Of a stretch of 30,060 nt of DNA, positions 2,104 to 8,044 are shown piece by piece. The notes below the pieces were generated by a model that had not been told where the DNA came from, made no database searches, and saw nothing but the letters and a program-made list of their open reading frames with translations. Location: NCBI GenBank assembly GCA_964557715.1, contig CAZLAP010000044.1, positions 1-30,060 of the forward strand. The letters run 5' to 3'. The position numbers were made by a program, and so were the translations under genes. The stretch's first letter is position 1; each line of letters opens with the position of its first letter. Source of the stretch: an uncultured Candidatus Saccharibacteria bacterium. GTDB lineage: Bacteria > Patescibacteriota > Minisyncoccia > Minisyncoccales > RBG-13-42-11.

Positions 2104-2133
2104 TTGACACTGTATTTGCAAATAAAATATAAT
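2104..2133 (+). promoter_or_regulatory. Sigma70 promoter
   Basis: TTGACA (2104-2109), 18-nt spacer, TATAAT (2128-2133). Confidence 0.7.
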
Positions 2134-2169: not shown

Positions 2170-3387
2170 ATGAACAAAAAACTAATAATCAGCATCATCG
2201 TTATTTTAGTTATAGTTTTAGCGATAGGCGCGTATTTCTTTTTCGTCCAGCAAAGCGGTAGAGATAAGAAAGAGCCGGAGGAAATTGTCATTGGTTATAA
2301 CGCCGACCAATCTATTGGCCCCACTGCCGCTTTTGGCGTATGGGGAAGGCAAGGATTTGAAATTGCTATTGAGGAAATTAACGCCGAAGGAGGTATTCTC
2401 GGAAGAAAAATAAAACCAATTATTTTTGACGATAAAGCGGATGCGTCAACCTCTAAAAAAAACATAGAGCAATTGATTTTTGAACACCGCGCTTTGGCGG
2501 TAATCGGGCCGGCAAGTAGCGTTAACGCGCTATATTGGCTGGATTTAGCCCAAGACAACGAGCTGATTGTTTTTCCCCACATTGCAACCGCAACCGAGAT
2601 AACAACAAAGTATTCCGAGCGACCGAAAAATTATATTTTCGGAATAAGAACTTTAGACAAGGATCAGGCAAGATTGTCTGTAGCTTGGCTTATAAAAGAA
2701 ACAAATAACGGGAAAATTGCAGTTATTCACGATTCAACATCCTATGGCACTCAAGGATTAAAAGACGTTAATGAAACTTTAACCAGATGGGGAAAAGTTC
2801 CTGTTTTTGTCGGAGAATTTAACAGGGGAGCCGGGATTGAAGAGCTTATTGAATTAATTGAATCAGCCAAAACGGTTGAAGCGGATGCCATTATTTTTTA
2901 CGCTTTAGCCGACTCTACCGCTGATTTTCTAAAAGCCTCAGAGGAGGTGGCAAATTATGAGCCTGTTTTAATGGGCACCGCTGCCAATGCCAGCATCTTA
3001 TGGCAATTATCAGGTTCGCTGGCGAGTAAAATAGTTTTTACGGCTCCGGTAAGCGCGAATTTTAACGAGAAGACAAAAGAGCTGAACCAAAAAATAATAG
3101 ATAAATACGGAGAGGCCCCGATAATACTTTCTTCCGCTGCCAGCGGATACGATGCAGTTTATCTTCTTAAAGCTGCGATAGAGAAAGCGGGAACAATTGA
3201 TAATAGTGCGGTTAGAGACGCTTTGGAAAACATTGAAAGAATAGATGGCATTATGAGAACATTTTTCAGGCCTTTCAGTAAAGATGACCATGAAACTTTG
3301 AGCGTAACAGATTCTTTTTTATCTCGTTGGGTTGACGGAGAGATTGTTATTATAGATGAAGATATTTCAACTCTTGAGATTAGATAA
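2170..3387 (+). CDS. Membrane-anchored LivJ/LivK-type (branched-chain amino acid family) substrate-binding protein
   Basis: N-terminal TM anchor. Type-1 periplasmic binding protein motifs: AIEEINAEGGILGRKI..IIFDD, AVIGPASS, GYDAVYLL..AIEKAG. Confidence 0.85.
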   Translation: MNKKLIISIIVILVIVLAIGAYFFFVQQSGRDKKEPEEIVIGYNADQSIGPTAAFGVWGRQGFEIAIEEINAEGGILGRKIKPIIFDDKADASTSKKNIEQLIFEHRALAVIGPASSVNALYWLDLAQDNELIVFPHIATATEITTKYSERPKNYIFGIRTLDKDQARLSVAWLIKETNNGKIAVIHDSTSYGTQGLKDVNETLTRWGKVPVFVGEFNRGAGIEELIELIESAKTVEADAIIFYALADSTADFLKASEEVANYEPVLMGTAANASILWQLSGSLASKIVFTAPVSANFNEKTKELNQKIIDKYGEAPIILSSAASGYDAVYLLKAAIEKAGTIDNSAVRDALENIERIDGIMRTFFRPFSKDDHETLSVTDSFLSRWVDGEIVIIDEDISTLEIR

Positions 3388-3449
3388 GAAACAGGCTTTT
3401 GAGTTGGTCGGTCAATGAAAAGGATATTTTTACATCCTATAAATTCATA

Positions 3450-4862
3450 ATGGACGCGTTAATGAAAATAATAAAAAGATTTTCAGATTTAAAATTGAAT
3501 TTTAAAATAGCTTTATTTGTTGTTTTGATAACGATACCGTTTGTCTTTTTTTTAATATTTTTCTTATTGAACTCCCTTATTCAAACTTCGCTTGACATTG
3601 AAGCTGAATCTTTTGAAGATACGATGTTTTTAATAAAGCAAGATTTGATTAGAAACGTAAGCGCAAAGGCGCAGGTTTACGATTTTACGCTTAAGAATAT
3701 GATAATTGACCTTCAACCCGCAAAAGACAGCCTTGTTTCTGAGGGAGAAATTAGCGATAAATTTTTAGCAGATTATTATTATAAGCATCAAATAATTTCC
3801 GACATTTTTTTTATTAGCCCGGTTTCATTTAAAGTTTTTCCGCAGGATAAAGCCGATTTGGAGCAGAAAAAAGAACTTTTTTCTTTGATTGCTGAAAGCG
3901 AAAAAAGGTATGCCGGTTTTTGGCTTGGCCCATACGATGATTTGAGGAATCAGAAAAGAATAATGACCTATGTTTTACCCGTTTGGGAAGAAAATAATCT
4001 TAATGGAGTGCTCGGAATAGATGTTGATGTTGATATTTTACTTACAGAGATTATTCAAGCAGATATTTCAAAGCTTTCTTATGTTGTTATTGTCAGAAAC
4101 ACGGGAGAATTCATTTCTTCTTCGGAGAAATTTTATGATGATTTCGAAATAGAAAAAAAAGAAGAGTCCGTAATTTTTAGCAGCCAAATAGTAAAAAAGC
4201 AGGGGATTGAAGAAATTTTTACTTTAACGGGAAAGGAAAAAGGAATGTTTGAAATTTCAGGAGATGCAGACGAAAGTCAAAGAATAGTGTCATTTTCAAT
4301 TATACCTTCTTTCAGCGGGAAAATTTTGATTGTCTCTCCGTTAACTGAAATAATTGAAATCCAGAAAGAAAAAGCTAAGGAAATTCAGCAGTCTGTTTAT
4401 AATATTGGCATAGCCGCATTTGCGGGAGTGATTATTTTTTTATTATTATTCATTTTTTCTCTGCTTTATTTTTTACGGAAAACTATTATAGGTCCGATTG
4501 GCAAACTGAAGAGAGGCATGGAAATTTTAGAAAAAACAAGATTTAAAACAGAAATAGAAATTAAAGCAAAAGACGAAATAGGCGAATTAGCCGTCGGTTT
4601 CAATAATATGGCTAGGCGATTAAAGGATTCATACGAAGGCCTGGAACAGAAAATTCTGGAAAAAACAAAAGAATTGAAAGAACTGAACGAAGTTTTAGAG
4701 ATGAAAGTTGAAGAAAAAACCAAAGAACTTAACGAGCATATTAAAAAAATAGAAAAACTGCAAAAATTTTTTGTTGGCCGCGAGCTTAAAATGATTGATT
4801 TAAAAAAAGAAATCAAAGCGCTAAAAAAAGAAAAACCGGGCGGAGAAGAAAAAAAAGAATAG
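3450..4862 (+). CDS. Membrane sensor: TM-dCache-TM-HAMP-coiled coil, with no catalytic output domain
   Basis: Two TM segments flank a dCache-like domain (W.GPYDD...MTY..PV....GVLGIDV). HAMP motif PIGKL...DEIGELAVGFNNM. Two LE.K..EKTKEL helices, then ends in VGRELKMIDLK. Start is likely ATG 3450 or 3462 rather than TTG 3399. Confidence 0.8.
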   Translation: MDALMKIIKRFSDLKLNFKIALFVVLITIPFVFFLIFFLLNSLIQTSLDIEAESFEDTMFLIKQDLIRNVSAKAQVYDFTLKNMIIDLQPAKDSLVSEGEISDKFLADYYYKHQIISDIFFISPVSFKVFPQDKADLEQKKELFSLIAESEKRYAGFWLGPYDDLRNQKRIMTYVLPVWEENNLNGVLGIDVDVDILLTEIIQADISKLSYVVIVRNTGEFISSSEKFYDDFEIEKKEESVIFSSQIVKKQGIEEIFTLTGKEKGMFEISGDADESQRIVSFSIIPSFSGKILIVSPLTEIIEIQKEKAKEIQQSVYNIGIAAFAGVIIFLLLFIFSLLYFLRKTIIGPIGKLKRGMEILEKTRFKTEIEIKAKDEIGELAVGFNNMARRLKDSYEGLEQKILEKTKELKELNEVLEMKVEEKTKELNEHIKKIEKLQKFFVGRELKMIDLKKEIKALKKEKPGGEEKKE

Positions 4863-4920
4863 CTAAAAAAGAGGTTGCTATGAAACCCTTGAAGAGGATT
4901 GTTAAATTTTTTAAAAAGAA

Positions 4921-4946
4921 AAGGCAAACAAATGTTTGCCTTTTTT
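4921..4946 (+). terminator. Rho-independent terminator
   Basis: Stem AAGGCAAACA/TGTTTGCCTT followed by a T tract; the A-rich left flank could make it bidirectional. Confidence 0.65.
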
Positions 4947-5447: not shown

Positions 5448-6599
5448 ATGAAAAAAGCGTTTTTTATTTTTTTCATTATTGTTATCGGACTGTTTTTGTT
5501 TTTGCCTTTTGCGCAGGCAGAAGAAGATTTTTCTGAAGAAAAAGAAGTTATTATTTATTTTTTTGACGATAGGCTTTGTCCGGTCTGCAAAAGCGCAAAG
5601 GAATTCATCCAGAGCTTACAGCAGGAATATCCTCAAATTGAATTAATGGTTTATCCCATAAGCGATACGGGAAAATTAAACGAAATAGCCAAAAAATACG
5701 GGAGAGAGGATTACAAGATAATGGCGCCGACTATTTTTATCGGCGGTTCTGATTACGAAACAGGAAATTTTTTTCAATTCAGGGATTTTACTTCCCAGCA
5801 CGAAGAAATGGTCGTAAGGGCCATTAAAGGAGAGATTGTTGAAGAAGATTGCTGCATAGTTAAAATTCCTTTTCTTGACATAGAAATTGACATAAGGGAC
5901 TGGTCTTTGCCTCTTGCAACAATAATTTTGGGCTCTTTGGACGGTTTAAATATTTGCTCAATAGGCGCGCTGATTTTAATTCTTTCCATTGTTATTTTTT
6001 TTAACTCCAAAAGAAAAATATTGTTTTGCGGCGGCCTTTTTATAATTACTACGGCAGTGGTTTACGGAGTTTTGGTTTTTGCCTGGGGAAGGCTTTTTGA
6101 GGCTTTAGTCGGCCGATTGGAAATCTTGAGAATCATAGTCGGTTTGGCTGCTTTTTGCGGAGGCGTTTATTTTTTCAAGGAATCTTGGAAATTTTTTAAG
6201 CACGGACCGACCTGCCAAACTTTAGATTCGGCATTAGCCAGAAAAGCCACTGATAGATTAAAAAAAGCTTTTGACGAGCCGGAAAAGGGATTTTTCTTTT
6301 TAGCCGCAGCTGTGATGTTTTTTGCCGTGGTGATTACCGTTGTTGAGCTTCCCTGCTCTGTTGGCGTGCCCATAGCTTTTACCGGAATTTTAGCCGAAGC
6401 CGGGGTTTCTCTGGCAACTTACGTTTTTTACATACTTTTTTATCTTTTCTTTTATATGCTAATAGAGATTATAATATTTATCGGAGCCGTACTGACTAAA
6501 AAAATTTGGTTTGCCGGATCTAAAGTAATCACCTATATCACTTTTACCGGAGCCTTAGTTTTATTTTATCTCGCTTTTTATTATTTATTCTATTATTGA
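5448..6599 (+). CDS. Glutaredoxin-like domain fused to a CcdA/DsbD-like multi-TM disulfide-transfer domain
   Basis: Signal peptide, CPVC thioredoxin fold with APTIFI, then about six TM helices carrying two membrane Cys (DGLNICS, VELPCS). Confidence 0.7.
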   Translation: MKKAFFIFFIIVIGLFLFLPFAQAEEDFSEEKEVIIYFFDDRLCPVCKSAKEFIQSLQQEYPQIELMVYPISDTGKLNEIAKKYGREDYKIMAPTIFIGGSDYETGNFFQFRDFTSQHEEMVVRAIKGEIVEEDCCIVKIPFLDIEIDIRDWSLPLATIILGSLDGLNICSIGALILILSIVIFFNSKRKILFCGGLFIITTAVVYGVLVFAWGRLFEALVGRLEILRIIVGLAAFCGGVYFFKESWKFFKHGPTCQTLDSALARKATDRLKKAFDEPEKGFFFLAAAVMFFAVVITVVELPCSVGVPIAFTGILAEAGVSLATYVFYILFYLFFYMLIEIIIFIGAVLTKKIWFAGSKVITYITFTGALVLFYLAFYYLFYY

Positions 6600-6670: not shown

Positions 6671-8044
6671 ATGGCCAAGAAGCTGAAAAACAAACCCGCG
6701 AAAACTCTTTTAGCTAAACCTGAAGAAAGTGAAATAAAAAAAACCAAAATCAGGGTTATTGGCATTGGCGGCGGCGGCGGCAACATTGTTTCTGAGATTG
6801 CTTCTAAAATATCAAAGGCCAGCTTTGTTGCAGCCAATACTGATACCAAATCTTTGAAAAATTGCAACAGAAGAGTGGTTAAGTTTCAATTTGGCCAGAA
6901 TCTAACCCACGGCTTGGGCACGGGTATGAATCCCGAATTGGGAAAGGAAGCGGCTTTGAGCGAAAAAGAAAAAATAAAAAATCTTTGTCAGGGTTATGAT
7001 TTATGCATCTTGGTGGCTTCTCTCGGCGGCGGAACCGGTTCCGGCTCTGTTTCAACTTTTGCCAGAATTTCCAAAAATTTAGGCAATCTTACTTACGGAA
7101 TTTTTACCCTGCCGTTTAGTTTTGAAGGAGAAAAGAAAATGGAAATAGCCGCAAATTCCTTAAGAGAAGTGAAAAACCACTTGAATTCAATTACCATTAT
7201 CCCCAATGAAAGAGTTTTTCAGGTTATCAACAAAGAAACTCCGCTTAAAAACGCTTTATCCGCCATTAATAAATTTTTATCTGAAAGCTTAGGCGGATTG
7301 ATTGAAACAATCTACGAGCCAGGGCTGATTAATATTGATTTTGCCGATTTCAAAACCATTTTAGAAGGAAGAGGAAAATTTGCTTATTTAAATACTGTTG
7401 AGGAAAACCGAAAAGACAGCGTAATCAATGACCTTGTCGCCAAGGTTCTTAATTCGCCTTTGTATCCTTATAACATTAAAGGCGCAAAAGGCGTTTTGTT
7501 TAACATTGTCGGAGAAAAAAATCTTTCGCTTTCCGAAGTTAATCAAATATCAAAGGCGATTTCCGAATTGGTAAATTCCGAAGCAAAAATCATTTTTGGA
7601 ATTTCCCAAAACAGAAAGAATCCTAATGTTCTAAAAACCATTTTGCTGGCTACTGATTGCAATAAAGGGATAAAAATATCTTCCGGCAAACCGGAAACCG
7701 TTAAAAAAACAAAGAAGAAAAAAATAGCGAGAAAGAAAAAAAAGAACGTTATTGAAAAAAAACCGGTTTCAGCCAAAGTTTTGCCTAAGCCGGAAGAAAA
7801 AAATGGAAAATTAGCCAAGAAAAAGAAAATAAACAGAAAGAAAAAGAAAAAGTCCCGCGCTAAACCGCATACGACTTCCAAAGCGGCCGGAAAAAAAGAA
7901 AAAATCGCGGTACAGGTGAAAAACGAGGAAAAAATAAGAAAAAACGGCATTCAAATAAAAAAAGAAGCGGAAGAAATGGAAAAAGAAATAATTGATAAAG
8001 AAAAGTTTTGGGAAGTCCCCGCTTTTTTAAGGAAAAAAACATAA
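6671..8044 (+). CDS. ftsZ: Cell division GTPase FtsZ (divergent, Lys-rich linker)
   Basis: VIGIGGGGGN, ANTD, GLGTGMNPELG, SLGGGTGSG, PFSFEG, T7 loop GLINIDFAD and C-terminal peptide VPAFLRK. Confidence 0.9.
   Translation: MAKKLKNKPAKTLLAKPEESEIKKTKIRVIGIGGGGGNIVSEIASKISKASFVAANTDTKSLKNCNRRVVKFQFGQNLTHGLGTGMNPELGKEAALSEKEKIKNLCQGYDLCILVASLGGGTGSGSVSTFARISKNLGNLTYGIFTLPFSFEGEKKMEIAANSLREVKNHLNSITIIPNERVFQVINKETPLKNALSAINKFLSESLGGLIETIYEPGLINIDFADFKTILEGRGKFAYLNTVEENRKDSVINDLVAKVLNSPLYPYNIKGAKGVLFNIVGEKNLSLSEVNQISKAISELVNSEAKIIFGISQNRKNPNVLKTILLATDCNKGIKISSGKPETVKKTKKKKIARKKKKNVIEKKPVSAKVLPKPEEKNGKLAKKKKINRKKKKKSRAKPHTTSKAAGKKEKIAVQVKNEEKIRKNGIQIKKEAEEMEKEIIDKEKFWEVPAFLRKKT

Follow-up and report, generated by a model that had tools for sequence, protein, structure and literature searches.

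The stretch of DNA considered here, referred to as the window, is 30,060 nucleotides long and comes from an uncultured Candidatus Saccharibacteria bacterium (GenBank assembly GCA_964557715.1, contig CAZLAP010000044.1, positions 1 to 30,060 of the forward strand); it constitutes contig C44 of an assembly that totals 524 kb, is divided into 53 contigs and is rated 99.2% complete. The subject of this analysis is a two-gene unit within it that encodes a binding protein of the LivJ type and, immediately downstream, a receptor in which a double-Cache (dCache) sensor and a HAMP domain are followed by a conserved C-terminal tail. The two open reading frames, both on the + strand, run from 2170 to 3387 (405 amino acids) and from 3399 to 4862, and the features of the unit are as follows.

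2104..2133, + strand: sigma-70-type promoter, TTGACA-N18-TATAAT, agreeing with the consensus at 12 of 12 positions and lying 36 nucleotides upstream of the first start codon

2170..3387, + strand: membrane-anchored LivJ-type (Peripla_BP_6) binding protein, 405 residues, having an N-terminal hydrophobic anchor without a lipobox Cys

3462..4862, + strand: receptor gene, 466 residues from ATG 3462, comprising a first transmembrane helix (TM1), the dCache domain, a second transmembrane helix (TM2), HAMP, two signalling-helix (S-helix) units and the conserved tail

3579..4340 (approximate), + strand: extracytoplasmic dCache domain, placed using Foldseek and the family profile

4470..4628, + strand: HAMP domain (46.1 bits against a Pfam cut-off of 25, with the same span found in a whole-genome HAMP search)

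4635..4739, + strand: two S-helix-like units, (L)ExK(I/V)xEKTKEL, with EKT in place of the ERT of the family consensus

4740..4829, + strand: conserved C-terminal tail IKKIEKLQKFFVGRELKMIDLKKEIKALKK, with its Arg codon at 4779-4781

4919..4944, no strand assigned: intrinsic terminator, a GC stem between an A-run and a T-run, usable in both directions

The promoter is the only perfect match to its consensus in the window, where shuffled sequence gives a mean of 0.02, and the observation made in an earlier note on this DNA, namely that the two genes form a unit with its own consensus promoter and terminator, is confirmed. For the receptor there are alternative starts at ATG 3450 and TTG 3399, but as ATG 3462 is the start both in the homologues and in the database entry (MKIIKRF..., 466 residues), TTG 3399 is probably not the true one; residue numbers given below are counted from this TTG. 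Membership of the binding protein in Peripla_BP_6 is clear (166.4 bits against a Pfam cut-off of 31.7), its best relatives of solved structure in the PDB being Leu/Ile/Val-binding homologues (E ~1e-21), and, as the earlier note had already remarked, there is neither a permease nor an ATPase gene of the ATP-binding cassette (ABC) type beside it.

The outer part of the receptor gives a dCache_1 match of only 35.7 bits, under the Pfam cut-off of 45. An AlphaFold model, computed from a 33-row alignment and having a mean predicted local distance difference test (pLDDT) score of 82, consists of TM1 and a long helix, a pair of PDC modules, TM2 and HAMP (the latter as helix, connector, helix), and finally a continuous 85-residue helix that extends to the C-terminus. 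Foldseek comparison of the outer domain of this model finds likenesses to the dCache ligand-binding domains of PctA, Mlp24, Tlp3, CtaA and rpHK1S-Z16, with target-normalised template-modelling scores of 0.6-0.74, while the receptor family profile matches PctA and one Cache-domain protein. Judged by the predicted fold, the domain belongs to the dCache_1 sensor class despite its sub-threshold Pfam score.

Some of the residues that characterise amino-acid-binding members of this class are present. The Y-x-D element (3933-3941) reads Y179-D-D and the GID element (4014-4022) reads G206-I-D208, and of these Y179 (3933-3935) and D208 (4020-4022) are the counterparts of PctA Y144 and D173, the spacing being 29 residues in both proteins. 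In the AA_motif that defines dCache_1AA domains, an N-terminal part (Y121, R126, W128) precedes the C-terminal part (Y144, D173) by 13-17 residues (PMC8915833); the receptor carries the C-terminal part and lacks the N-terminal one, as no R-x-W occurs 13-17 residues upstream of Y179, where residues 161-165 read F-S-L-I-A. This agrees with the earlier note, which had recognised both the retained residues and the missing R-x-W. Because the counterparts of Y179 and D208 are also common to amine-binding dCache domains (PMC10104139), the ligand of the receptor cannot be called from them.

Beyond HAMP, a domain scan against Pfam and NCBIfam finds no match to HisKA, HATPase, GGDEF or MCPsignal (PF00015), and the NCBIfam chemoreceptor models that do match the receptor span TM2 and HAMP only. 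On its domain content, then, the receptor is neither a sensor histidine kinase nor a methyl-accepting chemotaxis protein, and the earlier description of a protein that stops after HAMP and two signalling-helix repeats holds good. The S-helix was described as a five-heptad parallel coiled-coil unit with a central E-R-T, found almost always between two signalling domains (PMC1592074). The two units seen here resemble it in forming predicted parallel coiled coil after a HAMP domain, and depart from it in having E-K-T for the E-R-T that is kept in the relatives (which carry 1-4 units) and in leading to a distinct terminal motif with no domain after it. The tail itself is VGRELKMIDLKKEI, the S-helix units being followed by ...FFVGRELKMIDLKKEIKALKK and 10 further residues, such that RELKMIDLK sits 27 residues from the C-terminus; a search with the tail profile gives 77 bits at 4659-4838, and by this motif the receptor is to be counted as one of a family of sensors that end in the same way.

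Throughout this family the consensus runs from HAMP through 1-4 S-helix units (LExxVxERTxEL) to (D/E)ELExFNKLxVGRELKM(I/V)ELKKEI, and within the core GRExxMxxLK of the family alignment R and E never vary, while M and K do so rarely if at all. If the consensus is read in heptads, the invariant Arg would fall in the core and a second hydrophobic stripe (V, L, I) would be left exposed, an arrangement that would suit the binding of further helices. The input domains ahead of the motif are diverse: among the hits of a first search they comprise dCache, a bare HAMP (in proteins of about 300 residues), PAS, single Cache (sCache), HisKA_7TM, or nothing recognisable. An exhaustive search places the motif about 10-40 residues from the end in roughly 130 of 145 representatives at 50% identity, and in nearly all of the 80 loci that were read it lies 17-35 residues from the stop, tandem paralogues being frequent. 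At least 333 tail stretches were confirmed in GTDB species-representative genomes, in many Patescibacteria classes, DPANN archaea, Thermoplasmata, Elusimicrobia, Omnitrophota and Geobacter; in a sample of 201 genomes from the phylum, 24 bear a tail. No Pfam or NCBIfam model covering the tail was found, the ESM Atlas look-up yielded unnamed clusters only, a full-text search of the open-access literature with the motif strings returned no paper, and a keyword search returned no description of the family. The family is thus very large, and no name for it was found in databases or open-access literature. It had been suggested in the earlier note that proteins ending in GRELKMxxLK be collected together with their neighbourhoods; what emerged is this large family and, as described below, contexts linked to kinases.

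The idea that the tail might be a degenerate helix of the dimerisation and histidine phosphotransfer (DHp) type, in which (S/G)(H/R)EL(R/K) would stand for the H-box, was considered and rejected, an hhalign comparison of the tail profile (59 sequences) with a profile of the HisKA region (19 sequences) giving a probability of 0.5%. Some sub-groups of the family (P0151, P0157; L048:6012-7178, L089:7341-8516, L097:6326-7177) extend 75-115 residues past the motif, one of them with a Cys-rich CW..C...C...C..C segment and another with a helical segment of about 75 residues containing W..(K/R)FQ.A...E and HEN motifs. The family is also present in a named proteobacterial genome record that is not a metagenome-assembled genome (MAG), that of Geobacter sp. 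OR-1 (L087, NZ_BAZF01000016.1), where five tail-ending paralogues of 344-657 residues lie within 16 kb; the kinase hidden Markov models (HMMs) found no kinase among this array.

The closest relatives of the receptor, at 43-57% identity, fall into two classes. Five proteins of 442-462 residues end like the receptor in ...VGRELKMIELKK..., while five others (P0005, P0007, P0009, P0010 and P0012), of 700-766 residues, continue into a fused (PAS-)HisKA-HATPase kinase and have no tail motif. Upstream of the sensor an orthologous Peripla_BP_6 gene of 405-406 residues (49-65% identity) is present in all three of the neighbourhoods read (L009, L010 and L011). It stands directly upstream in the cases of the fused kinases P0005 and P0010, both of which have a receiver gene downstream, and is separated by one hydrolase gene in that of the tail-ending P0006. 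As the binding-protein orthologue accompanies both classes, binding protein and dCache-HAMP sensor together constitute a conserved input module for which there are two alternative outputs. The fused relatives P0005, P0009 and P0010 share with the receptor a sensor that is 43-47% identical, an orthologous upstream binding-protein gene and the same HAMP; they differ from it in possessing a catalytic kinase and an adjoining receiver gene and in lacking the tail motif. Between the sister proteins of the two classes, tail and kinase occupy the same place. In a maximum-likelihood tree of the sensor region all 21 close relatives fall in one supported clade, with the tail and kinase forms interleaved. 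A shared downstream partner for this subfamily was sought and rejected, the gene that follows the tail homologue in L009 being unrelated to the 229-residue gene that follows the receiver in L011.

The earlier note had treated any close homologues extending into a kinase as a sign that the receptor is a truncation. Such homologues do exist, in the five fused proteins just listed, but they do not make it one, because the tail forms are intact and conserved and have an invariant motif of their own; the receptor is best described as an intact tail-ending sensor.

Gene neighbourhoods were read for loci L019-L098, kinases being counted with HMMs built in this analysis. Almost all neighbours of tail genes share their strand (83 of 87 upstream, 93 of 98 downstream), and a same-strand kinase occurs no more than four genes downstream for 64 of 91 evaluable tail genes, compared with 5 of 70 on the upstream side, so that the linkage to kinase cassettes is a directional one. 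When tail paralogues are excluded, the gene immediately downstream encodes a HisKA kinase in 28 of 88 cases, 18 of these with PAS. The order that recurs is tail sensor, an optional V4R-like protein of 200 residues, kinase, receiver, receiver. The 200-residue protein belongs to a family conserved in Patescibacteria; its match to V4R is weak, and towards the C-terminus it has the signature HPxxC...CxExKC...HEFxxKW. The soluble kinases that follow it have in common an N-terminal helix, (L)L(E/D)DLxxLExY(I)xxLxxFxPLP, ahead of the first PAS. On the upstream side, about 25 of 77 immediate neighbours of tail genes are binding proteins, drawn from at least seven Pfam families (NMT1, ABC_sub_bind, Phosphonate-bd, SBP_bac_3, Peripla_BP_4, Bmp, SBP_bac_1/8); outside the loci just defined, an SBP_bac_3 gene similarly precedes the tail receptor of L013. 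A motif-based count finds ABC-ATPase-like genes to number just 4 among the 1007 genes of the tail loci, none of them beside the binding proteins.

Other neighbours may be mentioned briefly. Hemerythrin genes (8/88) and FIST genes (4/88) are also seen directly downstream, while the commonest upstream neighbour is a 5'-3' exonuclease gene (13/77), which marks a conserved position for the cassette in Patescibacteria. At one locus of a Methanobacteriota MAG (L091:4519-6591) a PAS histidine kinase of 690 residues itself bears, some 30 residues in from the N-terminus, the tail motif (...FNRLAVNRELRMIELKREVN...GEKPPYDL), and the tail protein that precedes it ends in the same motif; this single case could be a hint, of the gene-fusion type, that tails and kinases associate.

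The signalling inventory of the genome from which the window comes is small, comprising two histidine kinases, one on contig C20 (PAS-PAS-HisKA-HATPase) and one on contig C14 (GAF...HisKA-HATPase, cut by the contig end), together with four receiver domains; its sole HAMP domain is that of the window receptor. The expectation voiced in the earlier note, that this lineage would have few two-component systems, is only roughly right, this genome having the set just given and HisKA being found in 169 of the 201 genomes sampled from the phylum. The single full cassette lies on C20 (L099, 1-3352), and is made up as follows.

1-453: tail protein, cut at its 5' end

472-1071: V4R-like protein of 200 residues

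1095-2606: PAS-PAS-HisKA-HATPase kinase

approximately 2715-3077: receiver, followed by a second receiver that is cut by the contig end

The V4R-like protein of this cassette has the signature HPxxC...CxExKC...HEF..KW, and the N-terminal helix of the kinase is LLEDLASLENYARDLFNF. The window receptor is an orphan on a contig other than that of the cassette.

Taken together, these findings suggest that the two-gene unit is a split sensor, in which the binding protein would be a co-receptor and the tail would couple the receptor in trans to a separate kinase, most likely that of the C20 cassette; we would put the probability of this at roughly 55%. In such a scheme the membrane-tethered LivJ-type protein would capture a small extracellular ligand and would then dock on, or act with, the dCache domain of the neighbouring receptor. 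The receptor, which is presumably dimeric as other receptors with HAMP are, would relay the conformational change through TM2, HAMP and the two S-helix units to the conserved C-terminal helix that replaces the kinase of the sister proteins, and this helix would couple it to a separately encoded soluble histidine kinase, for which the PAS-PAS-HisKA kinase of C20 is the best candidate, several plug-in sensors perhaps feeding this one enzyme. What the comparisons establish is the domain anatomy and intactness of the receptor, the conservation of the tail family, the synteny of binding protein and sensor, the lack of a Liv-type permease and the directional link of tail genes to kinase genes; both docking steps (that of the binding protein on the dCache domain and that of the tail on a kinase) are inferred, as is whatever is said of the ligand and of the final output. 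The earlier proposal, in which the binding protein would hand on the signal and the coiled-coil tip would work in trans, is partly supported, its core being in keeping with the comparative evidence (conserved synteny, binding proteins upstream of other tail receptors, absence of a Liv-type permease, a tail conserved behind many kinds of sensor); for the partner, which the earlier note had left unnamed, there is now a candidate class, the histidine kinases encoded downstream of most tail genes, on which the tail would dock.

A more sweeping version may be entertained tentatively, at something short of even odds: the tail would be a docking helix used universally in a modular sensory system of the plug-in kind, in which many sensors that lack a kinase converge on one separate histidine kinase, the window locus being a remote input to the single cassette of its genome. 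Such a system would extend across Patescibacteria, DPANN and other archaea, Geobacter and others, would have a third of its sensors served by dedicated non-transport binding proteins, and would be a HisKA-based counterpart of chemoreceptor arrays.

Several observations weigh against the proposal that the tail serves a separate kinase. At the window locus no kinase, receiver or V4R-like gene adjoins the receptor, so that the context typical of the family (a same-strand kinase and two receivers within four genes downstream) is absent, and what follows the terminator is a set of unrelated membrane-protein genes and then ftsZ. In the family at large about 30% of tail genes are likewise orphans, having no kinase within four genes. 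Moreover, the kinases found downstream are heterogeneous and include both soluble PAS kinases and membrane kinases with sensors of their own, for which reason one universal docking site on the kinase is not evident. HisKA accompanies the tail in all 24 of the tail-bearing genomes, but this is weak evidence given a base rate of 84% and the fact that the relatives are not independent. Finally, although the best sensor tree requires four changes of output, its backbone is unresolved and is compatible with a single origin, with the consequence that the frequency of swapping cannot be read from it.

Some of these same points lend weight to the alternative that the tail acts on a target other than a kinase (a receiver directly, or a cytoskeletal, division or pilus component), or merely clusters receptors, the frequent kinase neighbours then being co-regulated rather than docked. 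The orphan tail genes, the heterogeneity of the kinases, the presence of ftsZ among the next genes in the window and the existence of kinase-free arrays of tail paralogues, such as the five in Geobacter sp. OR-1, would all sit comfortably with it. Against this, the linkage to kinases is strongly directional and on the same strand, while ftsZ is separated from the unit by the terminator and is not adjacent in the loci of the relatives (L009-L011). On balance this alternative seems unlikely.

A further possibility is that the tail form acts as a decoy or as a negative regulator, either tying up the binding protein or pairing with a full-length kinase paralogue in mixed dimers that are inactive, rather than passing on a positive signal. 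The same sensor family does exist with fused kinases, and where both forms coexist mixed dimers can be imagined; in the present genome, however, there is no other HAMP or dCache-HAMP protein for the receptor to pair with, the two kinases have PAS or GAF inputs, and the conservation of the tail goes far beyond what a mere stop-gap would need, all of which makes this suggestion quite improbable.

The possibility that the binding protein is an ordinary uptake component, its permease unrecognised or unassembled and its adjacency to the receptor incidental, has in its favour that Peripla_BP_6 is a family best known from ABC importers and that the assembly is fragmented into 53 contigs. Yet a BPD_transp_2 (LivH/M) profile search finds no match in this genome, for all its estimated completeness, in circumstances where 12 of 14 control genomes do match. 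At three other loci (L009, L010 and L011) the synteny of binding protein and sensor is kept, again with no permease genes beside the orthologues, and the binding proteins encoded upstream of other tail receptors similarly have no ABC genes nearby. As far as the gene content goes, the cognate LivH/LivM-type permease that a LivJHMGF importer requires is missing from both operon and genome, and simple uptake appears very improbable. Lastly, that the receptor is the functionless remnant of a decaying histidine kinase that has lost its catalytic half, as the full kinases among its close homologues might suggest, can hardly be entertained for an intact reading frame with its own promoter and terminator, whose tail has invariant residues common to hundreds of proteins with unrelated sensors and in which profile comparison finds no remnant of HisKA.

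Returning to the split sensor as the preferred explanation, it may be useful to set it beside systems that are already established. In the LuxP-LuxQ system of Vibrio a periplasmic binding protein is paired with a sensor having a tandem-PAS periplasmic domain, so that here too a binding protein with no known transport function is encoded beside a receptor with a double PDC/Cache-like outer domain and signals through it. LuxQ, though, is a fused hybrid kinase without HAMP, and LuxP is of the ribose-binding class rather than Peripla_BP_6; the window receptor, which has no kinase, instead carries HAMP and S-helix units and finishes in the tail. The arrangement of chemoreceptor, CheW and CheA offers a second parallel, in that HAMP is followed by a long coiled coil of which the tip is the most conserved part, coupling to a shared soluble kinase is partly mediated by an adaptor, and some chemoreceptors also take input from binding proteins. 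In contrast, the window receptor has no MCPsignal domain, its C-terminal helix is predicted to be continuous and not a hairpin, the kinases linked to tails are of the HisKA type rather than CheA, and there is no CheW, the recurrent small partner being V4R-like. Separate sensor proteins that control a histidine kinase of the same operon are familiar from H-NOX/HnoK, NosP/NahK and UhpC/UhpB, where sensing and kinase activity similarly reside on different, co-encoded polypeptides; those sensors are not known to have a universal terminal docking helix in common, whereas in the tail family one short motif is found on dCache, sCache, PAS, seven-transmembrane and bare-HAMP sensors alike. The proposed split architecture would be a variant of two-component signalling that is not described in the open-access literature searched.

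Should it be true that the tail docks sensors on a separate kinase, a widespread split two-component architecture would have been missed by domain-based censuses, in which the tail sensors are counted as lacking an output because they are annotated only as 'HAMP domain-containing protein'. It would also account for the sensing of several signals by ultra-small genomes that have only one or two kinases, and would imply a sensory rather than a transport role for many of the orphan binding proteins in these lineages. What the window adds is, firstly, a natural comparison in which the same input of binding protein and dCache occurs with either a fused kinase or a tail; secondly, the finding that tail receptors are commonly partnered by binding proteins, of many families, that do not serve transport; and thirdly, an orphan tail receptor in a genome with only two kinases. 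The pair would make a compact test case, having one binding protein, one receptor, two candidate kinases and natural fused sister proteins.

A few further features flank the two-gene unit. Directly upstream of ftsZ (6671-8044) is a gene for a protein of 383 residues (5448-6599, + strand), which has weak thioredoxin- or DsbA-like matches in its N-terminal part only and no match to FtsA. On the other side, a hydrophobic open reading frame of 54 residues (1798-1962, + strand) is preceded by a strong AGGAGG ribosome-binding site, and a terminator-like hairpin (1979-2007) lies just ahead of the promoter of the binding-protein operon. No Rfam family was found in the window, nor in the GC-rich spacer when taken as 1450-2170. 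Three copies of the palindrome AGCACAAAGTGCT lie in the spacer between xseB and the small open reading frame (1530-1750, 2013-2080), their positions being 1661-1673, 1732-1744 and 2030-2042 (one mismatch), as compared with 0.03 expected by chance; a longer element, GAGCAC(T/C)TTGTGCTTCCTCCGAGACCC...AGCGAAG, is found also on contig C24 of the same genome, around position 3223.

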